Source: Squalus acanthias
Taxonomy: Eukaryota
NCBI GenBank assembly: GCA_030390025.1
Contig: CM059431.1
Location: 108,378,001 to 108,442,000, forward strand
Reading direction: 5' to 3'
Length of the DNA: 64,000 nucleotides
Under the pieces are notes generated by a model, which searched no databases, was not told where the DNA came from, and saw only the letters and a program-made list of their open reading frames with translations. Positions 2,305 to 34,825 of the stretch are shown here, piece by piece (position 1 is the first letter of the stretch; the number at the start of each line of letters is the position of its first letter). The translations under genes and the position numbers were made by a program.

Positions 2305-3068
2305 TGGCCCATATTTTCCGACCCTGCGGGTGTGTACGAGCTGTGTACACACCCATAGGGGCCTCACAAGTGTCGGTTTCAGGCATGCGAAGCGCACGCG
2401 CTGAAAACCAGCACTTGCGATCTCTCAAGAATCCACTTGACTGATCCTCCGCCTGCCCTGGAGAAGGGCCTCTGCGGGTGGGGAGTTCCGCTTTCTGCAC
2501 AACTTCCGCCCGCTGAAAGCCTTTAAAAATCTTATGCCTGGTAAAAGCCTGCTTAAGGCCTGTTGTTACCAGCATAAGAGTTTAAAAAAGTAAAAAAGTA
2601 AAAAAAAGTCACTCATTTATAATTTAAAAATACTTTTAAAAAAGGTAAGTTTATTTTTAGCCCCGTAAAAAACTTTAATTATATTTTCAAAAAATTAAAT
2701 TTTTGTTTAAAATATTTAATTTAATGTAATTTTAATTAATTTTAAATATGGGATTTTAAAAAAAATATATGTTTAATTGTATTTTTTGAGTGATCCCCAT
2801 TCATACTTTTGACAGTTCTGTGTGTAGAGACCTGTCAAAAGTGTGAAGGGGAATTCTCTTCTTTGATTGGTTCCCCATGGCCCACGTGATCCCAGGGACA
2901 CTTGCGAACCGCCTGCGCCCCTGGGATACCTGGGCCTCTGCGGCGCGCACCTGGAGAGGCCCGGGAGCGGAAGTCTCGGGACCTACGGAGCCAGCAGGTA
3001 AGTTCGTAGATTTTTCCAGATCAGAGGCATCTGCCCGCAGGAAGCCTCCGATCGGAAAATCCGGCCCC
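2305..3068. mobile_element. Harbinger-type MITE nested in 1749-3365
   Basis: TIRs TGGCCCATATTTTCC and GGAAAATCCGGCCCC, with TAA on both flanks (2302-2304, 3069-3071), the PIF/Harbinger-type TSD. Confidence 0.65.
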
Positions 3069-3094
3069 TAATTATTTAAATATATTTAAATATG

Positions 3095-3190
3095 AGGTAG
3101 AAGATCAGCCATGATCTTATTGAATGGCGGAGCAGGTTCGATGGGCCAAATGGCCTACTCCTGCTCCTATTTCTTATGTTCTTATGTTAA
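3095..3190 (+). mobile_element. CR1 LINE 3' terminal fragment
   Basis: GGCCAAATGGCC stem-loop followed by a (TTCTTATG)n tail. Confidence 0.75.
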
Positions 3191-4021
3191 TGAAGTGCCC
3201 CGCCTCTCCACGGCAGCACACTCGAATGCCCCAAAATCTGCCGCCGCACGGGCGCCTGCGCGGCATGTTGGGAATGCGTTCCTCATATTTAAATTTATCA
3301 TCCATCCCCCCACCATCCCTCTCCCGCCCACAGGGCAGGTGGGAGGTGGGGTTAATATTGATGCCACTATCCTTGTCTTTCAAAATTTTACAAGTTGAGT
3401 CATGTCGCCCCCTTAACATTAGCTTTCAGAATTTCCCATGAAACTAATCTCCACGTGTTAAGTAGGCCAATATTTCAAGTGGCCTTTGACTTCAGGTCAA
3501 GCACTGGTCATTGATTAAGCTTGAAAGCAGAATTCTGTTCAATGCTACAATTAGGAAAGGTGATTGCAGCAACACTTACAGCCCAAATCAAGTTTTTTAT
3601 TTTTGTTTGAGACGGGAGAGAGGTGGGTGGTGTTGGAGCAAGAAAATATTACAAGCATTTGTGCGTGTCTGTATATCTGTTTTGGTGTCAATCAGTACTT
3701 TCATTGCATTGATTTAACGAGCATCATTGTCTTGTAATCAGTCTCAAAGAATACTTCATCAGGGTTGAAAACAAAACTGTATAAAGATGTGATTGGTGAA
3801 GCAGTGACTCAGTCACATTGTAAATTGTGCCATCACGACAAATTTTTCAGTGTTGATGAAAAATGAAGAATAAACAAGAAGGACAATTATAAGCAATTGC
3901 AATCCTTCTGCTCATTCTAAAATGCACATTGTAAAAGTAAATAATGAGCTAAATTTTGGTGAAATATCACCCTGTCTTATAACCACGTGCATACATATAC
4001 TGTTTGCGTTCACTTAAAGAG

Positions 4022-24933: not shown

Positions 24934-25340
24934 AACAACAACTTGTATTTATATAGCGCCTTTAACGTAGTAAAACGTCCCAAGGCGCTTCACAGGAGCG
25001 TTATCAAACAAAATTTGACACCGAGCCATATAAGGAGATATTAGGGCTGCTTGGTCAAAGAGCTAGGCTTTAAGAAGCGTCTTAACGGAGGATAGAGAGG
25101 AGGAGCAGTTTAGGGAGGGAATTCCAGAACTTAAGGCCTTGCAGTTGAAGGCACGGCCACCAATGGTGGAGCAATTAAAATCGGGGATGCTCAAGAGAGC
25201 AGAATTAGAGGAGCGCAGATATCTTGGGGGGTTGTGGGGCTGGAGGAGATTACAGAGATAGGGAGGGGCGAGGCCATGGAGGTGTTTGAAAACAAGGATG
25301 AGAATTCTAAAATTGAGGTGTTGCTTAACCGCGAGTCAAT
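24934..25340 (-). mobile_element. L2-type LINE 3' end
   Basis: (CAA)n tail, homologous to 39640-40219. Confidence 0.8.
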
Positions 25341-26354
25341 AAACTATAAGCCAAATCTTTATTAAGAGTATAGACCAAGTTGAATAAAGGTGTACAAAAG
25401 GTTTTGTGGTGGGTTTGAAATAGTTTAGAATTTCCATTCTTTTGTAAGGTCCCTCCTTTCAGATGAGAGACTTCTTTTCATTAGTTGCCCTCAGGATGTG
25501 GGTGATATTGGCAAAGCCTAATTTTATTGACATCCCAGTTGCTCTGGTAACATGGTGGTGGGCCATCTCCATAAACCACGGTCACCCTCGCGCTGATGGT
25601 GCTTCTACGATAGTTTTAGTTAAGGATTTCTAGAATTTTGACCCGGCAAAATATGTCCAATTCAGGAGGTTGTGTGTCTTGGAGGAAAAGTTGTAGGTGA
25701 ACGTATTTCCGTGATGTTATTGCTCTTGTCATTTTAGTGGTAGAGGTCGCAGGGTAGGGGGCTGAGTTGAAATAAGCTTGGCAAATTGCTGCCGTGCACC
25801 CTGTAGGTGGTACATACTGCTGGCACAATACACCTGCGGTGGAGAGGATAATAATGCATTCAGTGGTAGGAGCGACAGCTCTATCCTGGATGGTGTTCAG
25901 CTCTACCTCACCAACACTTCTCTTAAATCTTCCACTGCCTCTGTTTTTTTATTAATTCTTGGGATGTGGGCGTCGCTGGCAAGGCCAGCATTTATGGCCC
26001 ATCCCTATTTGCCCTTGAGAAGGTGGTGGTGAGCCGCCTTCTTGAACTGCTGCAGTCCGTGTGGTGAAGGTACTCCCACAGTGCTGGTAGGGAGGGATTG
26101 CCTGGATTTTGACCCAGCGACGATGAAGGAACAGTGACACATGTCCAAGTCAGGATGGTGTGTGACTTGGAGGGGAACTTGGAGGTGGTGGTGCTCCCAT
26201 GCACCTATTGCCCTTGTCCTTCTAGGTGGTAGAGGTCGCGGGTTTGGGAACTGCTGTCAAAGAAGCCTTGGCGTGTTGCTGCACTACATCCTGTAAATAG
26301 TACACACTGTAGCCACGGTGGAGGGATTGGATGTTTAAGGTAGTGGATGGGTTG

Positions 26355-26699
26355 TGTAAGGGTCACGGACTGGTGCGAGGTGAGGCTTTCGTTGCCTATA
26401 CTATTGCTTGCTCTGGTCTCCGGCCAGACTTTTGCAATAAACACCTGTGAGTGGTTCGACCCACTCGCCCTTACGGTTCTGACACCTGGACTTAGATGCA
26501 AGGAGCAGTAATGCAGAGAAAAGACTCAAATAGACCTGGTTGAATAGCACGAAATGAATGTCTTTATTGCATGGCGTCTAAAATCATGAAATACATGTCA
26601 TAGGCGCAGATCAAAGAGAGTACCAGTATACACACGTTCATAAAACTTGGTCTATGGAAATGGGGAACACACGACACATCGAAAAATGGGGAACACATT
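26355..26699 (-). repeat. 3' LTR (only distal R-U5 matches the 5' LTR)
   Basis: Matches 31566-31910 with about 10 substitutions by eye. Minus-strand AATAAA at ~26563-26568. Confidence 0.9.
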
Positions 26700-26990
26700 C
26701 TATGGCCCCCACGACACATGTAGTCCTCATTTCCCAGAAAAATCACACTGTGTTTATCTTGGACGATCATAGGCAGCATTGCCTTTAACTTACACTGCGT
26801 ATTCGCCTTCCAGGTGCAAGAGGCCGATGCCGCTTGCACTACCTGTACACGCATGTTTTATTATAAAAGAAAAACAATTAAACTGACTGTTTTAAAAATA
26901 CAACAGTTCCAAACTTAGTCACAAATGCTTATAACTACAACAATTGCAAAGCACACACGGTAAAATGGGGGGGGGCGTTATCCTGGCAGC

Positions 26991-28385
26991 TTACGCGGTA
27001 CTTTCCTCGTTCACGCGCACGTAACATTCTCTCCACTCCCCTGTGTTCTCCTGCCTCGTGAGGCGTTTGCCCCTTTTGCAGTGCACGAACAACAGGTACA
27101 CTACAATTGCAACTTGACATACTACCAAAATGTGGGAGGCTATCCTGATCCATGACGGGACCTCAATATTAGTGAACAGATCCCACCACGGTGGGGTTAC
27201 TATGTCCAATATCTCTGCCCCTATCTCTACGGTCTTCTGTTCCAGGGTGTAAAAATGTTTCTGTGATACCATGACGGCTTTTAAAATCTTGGTGAGGTGT
27301 TCAGGGAGTGGGGGAATGATGTACCCGAAATGTGCGACGAATCGCTGCAAGTCTGTGAAATTCTCTTTATTAAAAGCAGTGAACACATCGTTCACAGCAC
27401 CCCTTCTTTGTCTCCCCACCTGACCCAAAACTTCGTGTGGTGTGGTGTATAGGCTTGTTTTGTCAACCTCTGCAAAATCAAACTCATAAAACTGCCTGAA
27501 CATGTTTGTTAACAGGACCTGGTACAATTTTTCCGTTTCTTTGGGGCACCATTCTAGCAAATGCACCTCAGTGAGATTTAGAATCACCGAGGCCACCGCG
27601 TAATGTAGCCCCTGATACAGTATCTGATCTGTTGGTACCAGACCATTCCCGGGCCCCTTAGTGGTTTTAGAGCACCCTTCCTTCTGAGCCAATGCTACCG
27701 GAATCGTGGGCGGGGGCTTGCGTGGGCGCGTGATGAGTTCAGTGGCGTTTACCGGGATCGGGGAGAATGGGGCTCCGCACCCCCGGGTGCTGACGTCCCA
27801 CCTCATCCCTTTCCCGGCATCCTGCCACTGTTGTAGGAAAACTATGGATATACCCTTGGGGCAAACGTACGTCGATCCCCACATACACACATATATTCCC
27901 TCATCCGGTTCCCACCATTTGTCCCAACAGACTCTCACTTGTCCGTTAGTCCCCGTAATTGTCCGATGGGTATTGTTATCCAATTGCTCCCACTCGACCG
28001 AGGAATTTCTCATAGTCTTGCTTAACTTCCGTAACCACCACCATCGGCCCAATGGGACGTTCCCATTGCACACCAAACAAATCCTTTTGCCGATGGTGAC
28101 GCTGATTCTGGGTGCAACGATCCTCACCCTGGGACACAGTAAAGAAGTCTCTTTGTACGCAAACCTGGACGCGCTGGAGTATTCCGTCGAATTCGTTCCC
28201 AGCCATCCCGGCCACCTTCCCTTGTGGAAATAAGTGGCGGTTTCCTCAGCCTTTCGCTCCCCGGTCCCATCCGTCGCGATGGGGGCCATGTCCCCGGAGC
28301 AACCGAACACAACGACATCCTTGGTGAGGCCCCGATAGGCCAATCCATATCCGATCGTTGCGAGCACCACCAGAATCCTTTCCAT
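26991..28385 (-). CDS. env: Env-like glycoprotein, 464 aa (signal peptide, Ig-like domain, F2-like segment, RQRR furin site, TM)
   Basis: Uninterrupted ORF with hydrophobic N-terminus, C106..W117..DEGIYVC167, six N-X-S/T sequons, RQRR|GAV at aa 325-331 and a TM segment at aa ~413-435. Splice-acceptor-like TTTTATCTGATCACAG just upstream (AG at 28399-28398). Confidence 0.8.
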   Translation of the reverse strand: MERILVVLATIGYGLAYRGLTKDVVVFGCSGDMAPIATDGTGERKAEETATYFHKGRWPGWLGTNSTEYSSASRFAYKETSLLCPRVRIVAPRISVTIGKRICLVCNGNVPLGRWWWLRKLSKTMRNSSVEWEQLDNNTHRTITGTNGQVRVCWDKWWEPDEGIYVCMWGSTYVCPKGISIVFLQQWQDAGKGMRWDVSTRGCGAPFSPIPVNATELITRPRKPPPTIPVALAQKEGCSKTTKGPGNGLVPTDQILYQGLHYAVASVILNLTEVHLLEWCPKETEKLYQVLLTNMFRQFYEFDFAEVDKTSLYTTPHEVLGQVGRQRRGAVNDVFTAFNKENFTDLQRFVAHFGYIIPPLPEHLTKILKAVMVSQKHFYTLEQKTVEIGAEILDIVTPPWWDLFTNIEVPSWIRIASHILVVCQVAIVVYLLFVHCKRGKRLTRQENTGEWRECYVRVNEESTA

Positions 28386-28657
28386 ATCTCCTGGTTCCTG
28401 TGATCAGATAAAATGATGTAGCCAGCCTCCCAAGAGTCTCTGGCTTTTGTGAAAGGTGAGCGGGTCCCTTGACCTCGTCTCACGTACAAGACATGCATAC
28501 TGGATAGACCTTAACTGTTCCTATCACTAACTCCCATCATTTTACCATTTACCTATGAAATTAAACTACAATCTTAACCTGATATTAAAACACTATAAAC
28601 TTAAACTTATCCTCCTAAAATTACTGTACAGCGCCGCCCGTTCCCAGGGCGGCCTAG

Positions 28658-29767
28658 CTAAATTCTGAGAAGGCTGCCGCGAGCTGTTCCCCGTGGCGGG
28701 GGGGCACTGACCCTTGTCTTTGATCCGCCGCAGCCTGTCGCTGCCGATCGGGGACTGGGACCTCCCTGGGCTGCCTTGGACTTACGCCTGGGGGTGTACG
28801 AGGGATCTGGCCACAACTTCCTGGGCTGGGGTGTCCGACTCGACCTGCGGAGGGCCACCTTGGGCAAGGCCTCCAGGGCCGACGGACCGGGGACCGGGAC
28901 TTCCACCGTCACAGCCTGTGGTCCCACCACAGCCGCCGGCTCTGTCTCCCCTGGCTTCGCCCCCCTGGGCTCGGGATCTGCGGTTTCCGACTCCACCCTA
29001 CTTGTTTCTACAGTAGGTGAATCTCCACCCGTAATCCCTACCTCCCTTATGCTCGGGTCGAGGGCGGAACCTCCGTCCTCCGACCCCACCACCTCTCCGA
29101 CCGGGTCACAAACTTGGTCGAGCCCTCCGGGCTCTTCCTCATCCGTATCCCAAGAAAAAGAAGAGACCCTCCACTTTTGCAGCATATCTTCTCCCCTCAC
29201 ACAGGCTGCTTTACCGGCCTGCGTGACCTGCGGTCCTATTCGGGGCTGAGAGTCCCCACTCGCAGGTCTGGCCCCTCCCCTAAGACAGGCCACCGCCCCT
29301 GCTTGTGCATTCTGTGTAATCTCGCCTGCTGGAGGCTGAAGATTTCTATTCTGTCTTAGTTTGGGCAACTCTGCTACCATGGCTTGCAACTGCGGGGTGG
29401 TGAATTCCCCCGGGGTTGTTGAGCAAACCATCCCTCTGGCTTTGGATAGGGCTTGGGTCAGACCTTTTATCCTTTCCTCACAGGGCCCATGGTTTAAAAC
29501 CTCATACTCCCTACTCCTGGCTACCCTGTAGGCTGCCTTTATGTCTCTAAGCTGCCCTTCTAGCCCGTCTGCTTTCCCCATTAAGCGGGCGTTCTCCTCC
29601 CGTAAGGCCTGCTCTCTAAGCTGCCCTTCTAGCCCGTCTACTTTCCCCATTAAGCGGGCGTTCTCCTCCCGTAAGGCCTGCTCATTTAACCTGGCCTCCT
29701 TACAGGAGGTCTCTTCCTGTGCGTGTCTTTCAAGGGGACACAGGTAGGCAGGCTGCGCCGGTTCCAG
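28658..29767 (-). CDS. Gag-paralogous ORF in the pol position (coiled coil plus acidic/basic low-complexity tail), in frame behind the gag stop
   Basis: Frame is open from the codon after TGA (29770-29768) to 28658, first ATG at 29650. LRDIKAAYRVA...NHGPCEERIKGLTQALSKARGMVC aligns with Gag LRGVRAAYKMA...DHSVCQREIENLREALNKANGLVC. Confidence 0.7.
   Translation of the reverse strand: MEPAQPAYLCPLERHAQEETSCKEARLNEQALREENARLMGKVDGLEGQLREQALREENARLMGKADGLEGQLRDIKAAYRVARSREYEVLNHGPCEERIKGLTQALSKARGMVCSTTPGEFTTPQLQAMVAELPKLRQNRNLQPPAGEITQNAQAGAVACLRGGARPASGDSQPRIGPQVTQAGKAACVRGEDMLQKWRVSSFSWDTDEEEPGGLDQVCDPVGEVVGSEDGGSALDPSIREVGITGGDSPTVETSRVESETADPEPRGAKPGETEPAAVVGPQAVTVEVPVPGPSALEALPKVALRRSSRTPQPRKLWPDPSYTPRRKSKAAQGGPSPRSAATGCGGSKTRVSAPPPRGTARGSLLRI
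29544..29683 (-). repeat. 69-bp in-frame tandem duplication
   Basis: EQALREENARLMGK(V/A)DGLEGQLR twice, one nucleotide mismatch. Confidence 0.9.
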
Positions 29768-31562
29768 TCAGAAGTCTGGGTTATATGGGGCTGTTGCTCC
29801 CTTCCCGTGTGAGGTCATAAGAGACCGCATGGCTCCTAACATCGACTTGATCGCATCGGGATGGATAGGCACACCAGCTCCTCTCTCAGAGACAGGCGTT
29901 TGGGCTCGGACTGCGGGAGTTTTCTCCTTGGAATCCTTCCAGGGATTCCTACAGTTTTTGCGCCAGTGACCTGCCTTCCCGCACCCGTAACAAACACTAC
30001 TGGTTTGTGGGGCACGATTTCCCTCCTGATGCCACTCTTCTGAGCCGGAGCTGCGGGCTTTGCTTCATGCACTTTTCCCTTAAGGGGACGCGCTCCCGTG
30101 CTTCTAGTGTTCCTATACCCTATGGTGAGGTGACTCAGGACCGACTCCTCCGTTGTATCGGGGTTGGTGGGATCAAACCACGCCCTGGTCTGCTCCCTGA
30201 CAGGTGGCAAGCTGTTGGCCACTATGCACCTGAGCCAATGAGCTTTCCCGGCACCGTCCAGGCGGTGGCGCGCTGGTGTACTCAGGCAGCTACGCTGATA
30301 TACTGGCCACAGCCTTTCGGCGAAAACCCGTGGGGGTTCTCCCTCCATCTGCACTGTCTGACCCAGTCTAACGAACGGACCTTCGTCATCCGCCCCTAAC
30401 ACTTCCAGGACCTCGTCCCGTAAATCCTCATAGCCCTTAACTCCCCTCTTGCTCTCGTCGGAGAGACACTGAAGGATTGAGCTATCCAAAGAGAACAGCA
30501 ACATTTTGGTCTTTTCCTCGTCGTCGCAGCCATTAATCGCTGCGGTCTGTTCTACTTCTCTAAAATGCACGGAAGGGTCTCCTGACTCGGACAGCTTCCG
30601 GACATGGCTGATCATTGCCCTCAGCTGTTGTGAGCTGTGGGGCACTACAATTTGGTTTAAGAGGGTCCCGTCTTCCCCATTTTCCCCAGGGCCTCGCTTC
30701 TGTTCTCGGACCGTCACATCGGTGCCGGTCTCGACACTACCTCCGGGGATTGTTCTACCTTGGGAACCTCAATCTCTATTTCCACCGCTTCCTCCCTCAC
30801 CCAGGTTTCCGTATAGCTGGGTGGCGCTGAGGGCTTGGTGGTTGGTACCACACCTGCTTTTCTTGGTAGGGATTTTGGGAATTCCCTACCTACCTGTGGC
30901 TGGCTCGCTGACGGGCTGATGAGACACACCAAGCCATTTGCCTTATTCAGGGCCTCTCTCAGGTTCTCTATCTCCCTCTGGCAAACACTGTGGTCGGCTC
31001 TCTCAGACCTATCCTCGAGAGCCATCTTGTATGCCGCCCTAACTCCCCTCAGACTTTCTTCCTGGGCCTTTATCTGGTTAGCTAGGCGGATACACCGTTC
31101 TTTAATCTTTCCCTCACTCAATTTAGCTTCCGTGACCTGACATTCTAAGTAATCGATCCTAGCCTCGTGGTGGTTGGCTACTATTTGGCGTTCCTGATGC
31201 AACGCATTCAGTGATGCAATCAGTTTCTGTCCTCCCGTAACCTTTTCCTCCATCTCTGTTTCTAACTCTCTGATCTGAGCTGCCTGTGCTGCAATGACCT
31301 GGTCCGAAAGTTGGACTTGCTTTTTGTAGCACATCAGCCAGACCGCTTTCTCTACTGATTTCTTATATTCTCTGCTACCTGTCCACCTGATGGCTGCGTC
31401 TAGCGGACGCCTATCCGTCAGTAGGTCACATATCCACTGTTTGGTCAGGTTTACTTTCCTGAACACATAGTCAGCTACTTTTTCGTCCATTACATTTCGT
31501 TTATTCAAACCTGGGTCTAAGACATTACTCTCTTGCTGCCAGGGTCCTGCTACGGTCGCCAT
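29768..31562 (-). pseudogene. gag: gag with two -1 frameshifts (~30717 and ~30035): coiled coil, capsid, CCHC knuckle
   Basis: ATG at 31562. Capsid-like QMEGEPPRVFAERL in ORF 29836-30717. CYGCGKAGHWRKNC at 29992-29951 in a third frame ending PYNPDF-TGA. Confidence 0.85.
31544..31561 (-). promoter_or_regulatory. Primer-binding site, tRNA-Ser-like
   Basis: TGGCGACCGTAGCAGGAC lies 4 nt after the LTR end and resembles the Ser PBS pattern TGGCG.....GCAGGA. Confidence 0.6.
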
Positions 31563-31565
31563 TTC

Positions 31566-33183
31566 TGTAAGGGTCACGGACTGGTGCGAGGTGAGGCTTT
31601 CATTGCCTATACTATTGCTTGCTCTGGTCTCCGGCCAGACTTTTGCAATAAGCACCTGTGAGTGGTTCGACCCACTCGCCCTTACAGTTCTGACACCTGG
31701 ACTTAGATGCAAGGAGCAGTCATGCAGAGAAAAGACTCAAATAGACCTGGTTGAATAGCACAAAATGAATGTCTTTATTGCATGGCGTCTAAAATCATGA
31801 AATACATGTCATAGGCGCAGATCAAAGAGAGTACCAGTATACTCACATTCATAAAACTTGGTCTATGGAAATGGGGAACACACGACACATCGTAAAAGGG
31901 GGAACATATTATACCTTAACCTTATAAACCACCCTCCCTTAATATACCTAAACTACGTCTGGATTTGTAGGATCGGGAAACATGCTCACCACTCGGCTCA
32001 CTTCGGAAATTTAAAATGAGGCTCTCAGCTCGTTTCGCTGCAGCGCCTGGCTGTCACGTGGCTGTAAGGGTTTCTGCCCCCGACTTGTTTACTCTCGCTG
32101 CCGCGAATGGGTCCACTGGAGACGGCCCCGGTAAAGTTCGTCGCGGATGGCTCAGGCTATCCGCTCAAAGAGCCGGAGGGTAAGCCAGACTCCCTGATGT
32201 TATGAAGTAGTTTGTGGATTCAAACTGGATCATGAAGTAGTTCGTAGAATTCAAAACTGGTGGACTCCGCCGTTTAACTTCGGGCGCGGTCGGGGTTTAC
32301 TGACCGTGGCAGCAAGTGGAATTTCTTCTCGTCTTTCTTCTCGTCACTCGGGCCTTGCTCGGGAACACACTGCTGTGTTGCCCTGATTGGTCCGGACACC
32401 GTTTACCGACGATCGGGGTGGTGTACCCTACTGCCTGCCGTGTCAAGGTGGCTCGTTCCGATTGAACTCCACCCAACACTCGAATAACCGACCAGCACAG
32501 CTCTGCCAAAGGAACCAGCGCAAGAGAAAGAGCGAAGAGTCAAGAGAGCGATGGACATTTGTCCTCTGTAGTTATACTGTTTTGTCGGCCTTATCTCCCG
32601 CTCAAATCTAAATGTTATCCTTTGTATGATTTTGGCGCCCAAAACTCCCAGCATGGGGCGATTATCTTCTTAACGGGTTTTGGTATCACCTGAAACTGGC
32701 CAACTATCCGTTAATGCCTTCTCCATTGTTGGGCCAGCCAGGGCGTGTATGAATCGTCTCCTCGACTGGTTTTGGGGCCCCCCGAATACTGGCTTAATCA
32801 CCCGCCAATGTCTCTCTCATTGCTGAGCCGGGGGGGTATTTGTGTATTGATGTGTCTGGATGGGTTTTCGATGGCCCAGTTCAATGATTCTTACTGTGCG
32901 TATGAAACGATTCAAGCACTTATATCATTGCTATTGTCCAGGATGCAAACGGGTTGCATCCTGCCTTTTCAATTTGTACCAGGTATGATCTCATACTGAA
33001 TGTATATTCAACGCCATCTTGTCTGCCCACTGTGTCTCTGGAAGCTTCTGCCACGATGTGCGGCGGCCATTTTACAGGCTTCTGTACCCTTTATTATCAA
33101 GACAGCATTCCGTTCAATAAAAATGTTCAATTGAACCTGCTTCTCTCATATTATTTGAATCGCGATAATTGCGAAACTCTACA
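31566..33183 (-). repeat. 5' LTR (1618 bp)
   Basis: TGTAGAG...CCCTTACA. YY1-like motifs at ~33012-33073, TATAA at 32576-32572 followed by a pyrimidine-rich initiator-like tract, donor-like TG|GTGAGC at 31989, AATAAA at ~31774-31779. Confidence 0.8.
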
Positions 33184-33379
33184 GTTGCTGATCAAGTGAA
33201 CTGCTTTGTCCTGGACGGTGTTGAGATTCGTGAGTGTTATTGCAGCTGCACCTATTCAGGCAAGTGGAGTGTATTTCATCACACTCCTGACCTGTGCATT
33301 GTAGGTGGTGGACAGGCTTTGGGGATTCATGAGGTTAGCCAATTGCCGCAGAATACCCAGTCTCTGACCTGCTCTAGTT

Positions 33380-34440: not shown

Positions 34441-34825
34441 AACAACAACATAGTAAAACGTCCCAAGGCGCTTCACAGGAGCGATTATCAAACAAAATTT
34501 GACACCGAGCCACATAAGGAGATATTAGGGCAGGTCACCAAAAACTTGGTCAAAGAGGTAGGTTTTCAGGAGCACCTTAAAGGAGGAGAGGAAGGTGGAG
34601 AGGTTTAGGGAGGGAATTCCAGAGCTTAGGGCCTTGGCAGCAGAAGGCACGGCCGCCAATGGTGGAACAATGAAAATTGGGGAAGCGCAAGAGGCCAGAA
34701 TTGGAGGAGTGCAGAGATCTCGAGGGTTGTAGGGCTGGAGAAGTTTACAGAGATAGGGACGGTTGAGGCCATGGAGGGATTTGAAAACAAGAATAAGAAT
34801 TTTAAAATCGAGGCATTGCCAGACC
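34441..34825 (-). mobile_element. L2-type LINE 3' end
   Basis: Homologous to 24934-25340. Confidence 0.8.

Follow-up and report, generated by a model that had tools for sequence, protein, structure and literature searches.

A probable pol-less subfamily of an abundant endogenous retrovirus family with an F-like envelope in the shark Squalus acanthias

Is a provirus with gag and env but no pol the ruin of a full-length element or a member of a family that spreads in this form, and to which retroviral lineage does it belong? These questions are raised by a provirus on the minus strand, at positions 26355-33183, of a 64,000-nt stretch of the Squalus acanthias genome (assembly GCA_030390025.1, contig CM059431.1, positions 108,378,001 to 108,442,000; hereafter the window). 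A first-pass annotation, made from the letters alone, took it for a non-autonomous, helper-dependent member of the lokiretroviruses. We conclude that it is quite probably a dead member of a pol-less subfamily within an endogenous retrovirus (ERV) family that is very abundant in this cartilaginous fish and has recently been active; the helper-dependent part of the annotation is borne out, and the lokiretroviral part is not.

The same insert replaces pol at many loci

Pfam searches of the four open reading frames (ORFs) of the window copy returned no protease (PR), reverse transcriptase (RT), RNase H (RH) or integrase (IN) domain, and nothing above the cut-offs; the first annotation had likewise noted the absence of RT, RNase H and integrase motifs. 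In frame behind the gag stop codon stands ORF3, or X (28658..29767, minus strand; 369 codons from stop to stop). It overlaps a pol-less-specific insert of ~527-528 nt (29276..29803, minus strand; element positions 3381-3908), in place of which pol-bearing copies have 3.75 kb encoding PR-RT-tether-RH-IN. The insert starts ~19 codons before the end of gag, and its stop codon and first 12 pol codons are diverged (79% identity). ORF3 consists of these 12 pol codons, a gag-like coiled coil and a tail of ~205 residues that is found behind the integrase in pol-bearing copies; its original description as a Gag paralog is therefore fair for part of it. Within ORF3 lies a 69-nt tandem duplication (29544..29681, minus strand), of which other copies have one or two units, giving an ORF of 346 or 369 aa. 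The coiled coil is 36% identical to residues 138-221 of the family's own Gag (E 5e-13) and closer to the Gag of two distant relatives, P0187 (41%, E 3e-16) and P0188 (48%, E 1e-12), which points to recombination with a different related virus as its most likely origin.

A full-length provirus could also have lost its pol at this locus through ordinary post-insertion decay, and the window copy does have private damage, in the form of a truncated 3' long terminal repeat (LTR) and frameshifts in gag. However, the insert and both of its junctions recur on many contigs. At no fewer than 29 loci, a protein probe of the whole of ORF3 matched in one uninterrupted stretch that starts at residue 1, reaches residue 356 or beyond and spans both junctions; the frame is free of stops in 24 of these 29 (111 of 10,338 candidates scored). 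With the 528-nt insert as a DNA probe, all 40 scored matches were full length and 95-100% identical, and lay on different contigs (1,935 first-look candidates); in copies L035 and L036 the sequence stays colinear with that of the window through both junctions. Because the same junctions are found at at least 29 loci, the loss of pol is a trait of a subfamily and not a local event. Local decay, which the first-pass annotation had named as the alternative, is refuted by these matches, and we assign it virtually no probability.

The pol-less copies thus have the attributes of a non-autonomous subfamily: they lack pol, they have LTRs and gag in common with an autonomous partner, and they have the same junctions at many loci. 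An RT DNA probe likewise matched at full length in 40 of 40 scored cases (2,528 first-look candidates), and since the candidate numbers for the insert and for RT are of the same order, the pol-less form may be about as common as the pol-bearing one. As the deleted form has been copied many times without a polymerase or integrase of its own, we infer that it must have borrowed those of its pol-bearing relatives, that is, that it was mobilised in trans.

An older pol-less variant was observed in L051 (6386-7483), where a gag-like coiled coil is joined straight to the last residues of the integrase. This junction is unlike that of the main subfamily, indicating that pol was lost more than once or that the junction was remodelled.

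The autonomous form

The autonomous form of the family is ~12 kb long, with 1.6-kb LTRs, a primer-binding site for tRNA-Arg(TCG), gag, pol and env. Its Gag, of ~600 aa, combines a coiled coil at the N-terminus with a capsid-like domain and a single CCHC knuckle, and in the 12-kb copies a 1,437-codon open pol follows in frame behind the gag stop. Pfam recognised RVP, RVT_1, RT_RNaseH, RNase_H, Integrase_H2C2 and rve in the Pol of a pol-bearing copy, while an integrase C-terminal domain of the murine leukemia virus (MLV) type matched only below the cut-off (E 0.0074). Copies of the family are 93-98% alike and number in the thousands as first-look candidates. As for RNA evidence, contigs from four small runs in two studies cover the family; they contain no informative joint and cannot show expression.

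The ~240 residues behind the integrase (L049 2865-3600; compare window 28658-29270) match no Pfam family. This tail of Pol is weakly similar to the start of the Gag capsid region (30% identity, E 3e-4).

Insertion boundaries, terminal repeats and primer-binding site

The window provirus begins with TG (33183-33182) and ends with CA (26356-26355), and is bounded by a 4-nt target-site duplication (TSD), GTTG on the plus strand and CAAC in element orientation, at 26351..26354 on the 3' side and at 33184..33187 on the 5' side (CAAC at 33187-33184). Both flanks are halves of one host repeat resembling a long interspersed nuclear element (LINE). In L005, an uninterrupted paralogue of this repeat, the flank on the upstream side ends at 1039 and that on the downstream side starts at 1042, the two overlapping by exactly the four duplicated bases; a single integration event, as had been proposed, accounts for the arrangement.

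The 5' LTR (31566..33183, minus strand) is a full 1,618 nt, TG...CA, and corresponds to element positions 1-1618, a unit that is complete at both ends in four other copies. The 3' LTR remnant (26355..26699, minus strand) comprises only the last ~345 nt of the 1,618, with the terminal CA and an AATAAA at 26568-26563. Missing are LTR positions 1-1274 and ~105 nt of the region before the LTR, including the polypurine tract; in copy L035 a purine run adjoins the 3' LTR. A 141-nt probe across the truncation junction found a full-length match in the window only (1 of 40 scored; 1,439 first-look candidates), and the truncation is therefore private to this locus and later than the insertion. The segment present at both ends differs by 11 substitutions in ~348 aligned positions, close to the ~10 of 345 counted at first; that count had been made on what is only the 3' end of the LTR. 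This divergence is consistent with the fairly young insertion that had been suggested.

GAAA separates the 5' LTR from the 18-nt primer-binding site (31544..31561, minus strand, read 31561-31544), which was correctly recognised at first pass. In the window copy it is complementary to tRNA-Arg(TCG) at 16 of 18 positions, and both changes are of the CpG type and fall within a CGCG run; the site of copy L035 is complementary at all 18 positions to the tRNA 3' end with its CCA (ARAGORN: Arg(TCG)). The LTR pair, the TG...CA ends, the tRNA primer site, the polypurine tract and the short TSD place the family among the Retroviridae as an ERV, as does the presence of gag, pol and env together, with the capsid fold weakly supported.

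gag and stop-codon readthrough

In the window copy, gag (29768..31562, minus strand) is broken into three frame pieces, 31562-30714, ~30768-29836 and 30064-29768. Compared with the open 603-aa frame of copy L036, it has lost one base near 30715 and another near 30040, and these two losses explain why gag appears as a separate ORF1 and ORF2 plus a third piece. This last piece, of 98 codons, carries the CCHC knuckle. In other copies the intact Gag is a single 603-codon frame with one such knuckle.

The gag stop is a TGA followed by C (29768..29770, minus strand). Read as 29770-29768, it directly precedes ORF3 and is in frame with it, as it is with pol in pol-bearing copies; the annotated order of a gag stop and an in-frame second ORF is thus confirmed. 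Copies L033, L036 and L049 have gag and pol or ORF3 as adjacent stop-to-stop frames in one phase. The family thereby shows the class I (gamma/epsilon-type) arrangement of gag and pol in one frame with a stop between them. The TGA-C context would be leaky, with readthrough giving Gag-Pol in pol-bearing copies and Gag-X in pol-less ones.

A structure model of Gag, with a predicted local distance difference test (pLDDT) score of 54, has a 115-residue helix (72-187) followed by an all-helical region (316-495). Its best matches in a fold search are Arc and the capsids of MLV, human immunodeficiency virus and bovine leukemia virus (best capsid E 7.7e-3). A skate protein, P0186 of Rhinoraja longicauda, is 60% identical over 99% of Gag and has the zinc knuckle PF00098.

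Two further observations concern gag. The first in-frame ATG (window 31560-31562) shares 2 nt with the primer-binding site, and upstream of it the frame stays open into the LTR; the actual start codon may be a later Met. In the pol-bearing copy L033, gag contains an insertion of ~850 nt (~2862-3711); a nested insertion is suggested by its translation, which resembles a LINE reverse transcriptase in its C-terminal part.

An envelope protein with a predicted F fold

The env gene of the window copy (26991..28385, minus strand) is open, as first annotated, and runs for 464 aa, but it derives by deletion from a 783-aa Env: at ~27368/27369 it has lost 951 nt, or 317 codons, without a change of frame. 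The full-length protein has a signal peptide, an RQRR cleavage site at residue 325, which delimits a surface subunit (SU) of 325 aa, and a C-terminal membrane anchor. The deletion joins residue ~336 to a point just before the membrane-proximal helix, removing most of the F1-like ectodomain; the signal peptide, SU, RQRR site, membrane-proximal helix, transmembrane anchor and tail are retained. Among the matches to an Env probe, 29 of the 64 scored have a 789-codon open frame without a stop.

Searches for the paramyxovirus fusion protein family PF00523, the sequence signature expected of a lokiretroviral Env, gave no match in the window Env ORF (E<=1), in a 692-aa Env (E<=0.1) or in 17 relatives. 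Env relatives numbered two in a word-indexed search and 49 in a full HMMER search, and those with a name belong to frogs, sharks and a skate. For the AlphaFold model of Env, 39 aligned sequences were used; pLDDT is mostly high at residues 230-310 and 400-650, and confidence is low in the N-terminal 229 residues. In a Foldseek search of the Protein Data Bank (PDB) the model matched the F protein of human parainfluenza virus 3 best (E 1e-11; 234 matches at E<=0.001), and all of the PDB matches listed are F proteins of paramyxo- or pneumoviruses. On this evidence the transmembrane subunit of Env has the paramyxovirus F fold. When the model is compared with predicted viral structures, F-type glycoproteins of invertebrate mononegaviruses rank at the top together with baculovirus F and paramyxovirus F0. 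Envs of retroviruses are matched as well, namely those of walleye epidermal hyperplasia virus (4.4e-9) and walleye dermal sarcoma virus (4.5e-7) and, below these epsilonretroviruses, gp130 of feline foamy virus (4.3e-5, rank 46).

Of the Ig/F-like env proposed at first pass, the F-like half stands. For the immunoglobulin (Ig)-like half, SU has no Pfam match to such a domain, and the N-terminal 229 residues are modelled with low confidence; the only leads come from relatives, in the UniRef name of P0132 and a V-set match on P0157 (E 0.045). The Env of the skate Rhinoraja longicauda (P0001) is 78% identical over the matched part and, together with the close Gag relative from the same skate, indicates that the family or near kin is spread across cartilaginous fishes.

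The same ~951-nt env core is absent from four elements, the window copy (27368/27369), L050, L051 and L052, which are only 72-89% alike. Relative to the window, the gap junctions of the other three are shifted by +6, +1 and -12 nt, all within 12 nt, with the frame kept in no fewer than three of the four elements, and the gap is bordered by imperfect direct repeats. Splicing was considered as the cause and rejected, as the gap lacks GT..AG ends and the junctions differ in the other three elements. The recurrent gap could be a template-switching hot spot, or could reflect selection for a fusion-dead, anchored SU.

Lineage of the family

The placement among lokiretroviruses, with the window copy as a helper-dependent derivative, draws on several resemblances. 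Lokiretroviruses as presented in the sections available of Wang and Han 2020 (PMC7947760) are likewise LTR proviruses with gag, pol (PR-RT-tether-RH-IN) and env, with an Env related to F proteins of Mononegavirales and young copies in lower vertebrates, and some of them have an 'smc' or 'spc7' coiled coil before Gag. The shark family has a coiled coil N-terminal to Gag, comparable to the 'smc-gag-pol' and 'spc7-gag-pol' of the Loki consensus sequences and to the Gag of zebrafish BHIKHARI elements. A protein-atlas search puts the transmembrane part of its Env nearest to an F0 cluster (score 0.94), and its nearest Pol and Env relatives outside the Chondrichthyes come from frogs, coelacanth and turtle, which are also Loki host groups. 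Its Pol has the dual RNase H of lokiretroviruses (RT_RNaseH, E 2e-17, the 'tether'; RNase_H, E 4.6e-19), which canonical retroviruses have too. The F fold is no more specific: a meeting report, as excerpted, describes solved foamy virus glycoprotein structures as resembling paramyxo- and pneumovirus F, and with foamy and epsilonretrovirus Envs also F-like, this fold does not single out lokiretroviruses.

A Pol tree of 41 rows and 1,148 columns (LG+C20 PMSF, quick search, rooted on Gypsy rows) was built from the shark Pol and 40 of 120 listed matches (P0003-P0024, P0041, P0052 and 16 picked Gypsy-type rows), the other 80 being left out. Lokiretroviruses are represented by an anchor, P0020, which has six exact 9-14-mers in common with published Loki consensus Pol proteins (1 to 31 occurrences each). 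The other 24 ingroup rows, among them the shark family and the gamma/epsilon-like ERVs, together form the sister group of this anchor; the clade that joins these two to the exclusion of the anchor has a support of 100 in the Shimodaira-Hasegawa-like approximate likelihood-ratio test (SH-aLRT). As judged with this single anchor and a quick search, the shark Pol does not fall inside a Loki clade. The shark pair is instead sister (SH-aLRT 97) to a clade of a Xenopus group, class I-like rows and a teleost group, and does not lie inside the class I-like rows. The class I label is confirmed by the scores of P0022 (461 bits against MLV-type RT-RH, 188 against foamy); P0052, also class I-like, is placed elsewhere, on a very long branch. 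The approximately unbiased (AU) test rejects a clade of shark plus Loki (delta lnL 54.6, p 0.0016) and a clade of Loki with all shark and amphibian lineages that leaves out the class I-like rows (delta lnL 72.1, p 0.0012).

Scores against solved enzymes agree with this separation, the anchor ranking foamy above gamma (217 and 182 bits, with Ty3 at 298) and the shark Pol gamma RT-RH above foamy (232 and 212 bits, with Ty3 at 246). The closest Pol relatives outside cartilaginous fish, again from frogs, coelacanth and turtle, are 37-43% identical over ~1,000 residues, against 29-32% for class I-like fish ERVs. P0010, P0185 and P0007, Pol or Env relatives from frogs and coelacanth, had been candidates for Loki-Xtr or Loki-Lch; none of six peptides taken from them occurs among the published Loki consensus proteins, and they were not used as anchors. 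P0021 was likewise considered as an anchor and dropped. Furthermore, in the available text of PMC7947760 the printed Loki Envs have a short F2-like part of ~110 aa, in contrast to the 325-aa SU of the shark family, which differs from lokiretroviruses also in lacking a PF00523 sequence match and in standing apart in the Pol tree.

The same source, in the parts available, records three chondrichthyan genomes screened and none positive for lokiretroviruses. In the literature searched we found no report of lokiretroviruses in cartilaginous fish, no search having been aimed at this family itself. One paper mentions both lokiretroviruses and sharks, and the text available from it contains no report of the former in the latter; in the accessible portion of a paper on Troyka elements, 'Chondrichthyes' appears only for hosts of another element. 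Taken together, we regard membership in the lokiretroviruses as quite unlikely. The first-pass annotation had set this membership against the chance that full-length relatives would fall in an ordinary ERV clade, and that is partly what we see: in the Pol tree they group with canonical retroviruses.

For the exact class within these, a basal epsilon-like position and the 'foamy-like' clade of sharks and frogs are both candidates. The foamy-like alternative would make the family one of the basal foamy-like ERVs (FLERVs; CmiFLERV/XtrFLERV), kin of class III and the Spumaretrovirinae, and not epsilon-like. CmiFLERV and XtrFLERV, as described in the excerpts available of Aiewsakun and Katzourakis 2017 (PMC5512871), are deep Pol lineages of cartilaginous fish and frog like our family, the shark elements being known from pol only; a frog FLERV clusters there with shark FLERVs, and frog ERVs are the nearest non-chondrichthyan relatives here. 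A survey, as far as its available text goes, also puts most RTs of cartilaginous-fish ERVs in clade III. Long LTRs, a coiled coil at the Gag N-terminus, an F-like foamy Env and the integrase of prototype foamy virus as the best solved integrase match fit as well. On the other side, the RT-RH of the family scores slightly higher against gamma than against foamy, epsilonretrovirus Envs rank above the foamy Env, and Foamy_virus_ENV, Gag_spuma and the spumavirus protease give no Pfam match. In the Pol tree, which held no foamy reference, the neighbours of the family include class I-like ERVs. Foamy viruses are not known to have a Cys-His box in Gag or to make pol as a Gag-Pol fusion; the shark family, in contrast, has a CCHC knuckle in Gag and pol behind an in-frame stop with putative readthrough, a comparison in which FLERVs enter by description only. 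A foamy-like class is hence possible, but we consider it doubtful.

As far as tested, the sequences place the family as a deep canonical-retrovirus lineage near amphibian ERVs and the gamma/epsilon-like group, and not among the lokiretroviruses. Several points weigh against this placement and against the pol-less subfamily as we describe it. The copy numbers are counts of first-look candidates and no census, and mobilisation in trans would rest on the common junctions and a separate TSD. No Pfam family at all was found in the window Env ORF or the 692-aa Env, and phmmer comparison of Env with PDB sequences gave chance-level matches only. The Gag model is poor (pLDDT 54), and its fold search gave zero matches at E<=0.001. 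The Pol tree came from a quick search, with one anchor for Loki and without named references for foamy, epsilon or gamma; both groupings in the AU test were named only after the tree had been seen. The nearly level scores of the shark Pol against the solved enzymes indicate a deep lineage and leave the class open. Finally, two features, the N-terminal coiled coil fused to Gag and the F-type Env, resemble lokiretroviruses as printed.

Comparison with other pol-less and F-bearing elements

Among pol-less elements, the closest parallel in organisation is found in BHIKHARI (Bik-1 and Bik-2), non-autonomous endogenous lokiretroviruses of zebrafish (10.1101/2024.03.25.586437). In the portion of that report available, they form, like the shark subfamily, a pol-less LTR family that depends on relatives and has many recent copies, and their Gag of ~600 aa has an N-terminal coiled coil and a capsid domain, as does that of the shark family. 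However, BHIKHARI retains gag only, whereas the shark subfamily has gag, env and a gag-like ORF in the place of pol. The BHIKHARI Gag as described there ends in a glycine-rich patch in contrast to the CCHC knuckle of the shark family, and the viral lineage differs by the Pol tree.

The epsilonretroviruses are represented in our structure comparison by the walleye viruses, whose predicted Env structures match the Env model. Viruses of this genus have large genomes in which gag ends at an in-frame stop that is read through, and they have one Cys-His box. Unlike them, the shark family has no Gag_p30 match and no accessory ORFs behind env. Murine ETn (with MusD) and VL30 are LTR elements that also lack pol and have become numerous by using the enzymes of related proviruses; their interiors are largely non-coding, whereas the shark subfamily has open gag and env in many copies, plus the readthrough ORF.

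Proposed history of the window copy and implications

We propose that the subfamily arose when the 3.75 kb of pol were replaced by ~527 nt comprising a diverged gag end, the stop, 12 pol codons and the gag-like coiled coil. Transcription would start from the 5' LTR, and readthrough of the pol-less RNA would yield Gag-X in place of Gag-Pol. With LTRs, primer-binding site, polypurine tract, gag and env retained, such RNAs could be packaged together with those of pol-bearing helpers, reverse transcribed from a tRNA-Arg primer and integrated with a 4-nt duplication, all by helper enzymes. The window copy would have entered the host LINE in this manner and then decayed, with two frameshifts in gag, two CpG-type changes in the primer-binding site, and a deletion that took the polypurine tract and most of the 3' LTR; its env core may have been lost before or after integration. 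With gag out of frame, a 3' LTR that lacks most of U3 and the polypurine tract, and an Env without its fusion core, this copy is itself incapable of spread.

A broader reading joins three propositions: that the family is an undescribed deep branch of canonical retroviruses in cartilaginous fish and frogs with an F-type Env, that the gag-X-env hitchhiker is an adapted parasite, and that loss of the env core yields a membrane-anchored SU that blocks receptors. We consider this combination unlikely. Were the second part true, particles would contain the Gag-X readthrough protein instead of Gag-Pol, a role for which the stop-free ORF3 in most full-span copies may be relevant; were the first true, the F fusion module would appear to be old within retroviruses.

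For the annotation of ERVs, the locus illustrates that an F-like Env and a missing pol are insufficient for a lokiretrovirus label. A fusion module of the paramyxovirus type in several retroviral lineages (foamy, epsilon, loki and the shark family) is in keeping with an emerging view. For paleovirology, the family offers a well-preserved and very abundant chondrichthyan ERV with many open env frames, and its pol-less subfamily is a naturally occurring case in which the dependence of defective retroviruses on their relatives can be studied.

Additional observations in the host genome

A 25-nt tRNA pattern searched genome-wide gave 565 matches with up to two mismatches, compared to 0 for the control. 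Contig C26 carries, at ~38.99-42.23 Mb (L054-L056), long tandem arrays with a period of ~1,623 nt that contain tRNA-Arg(TCG), L054 also containing tRNA-Ser(GCT). In the window, an unrelated repeat of ~320 nt is present in two copies (25001-25324 and 34485-34819), 83-98% alike in pieces, which lie in the same orientation ~1.3 kb outside each end of the provirus and are probably two members of a dispersed host repeat.

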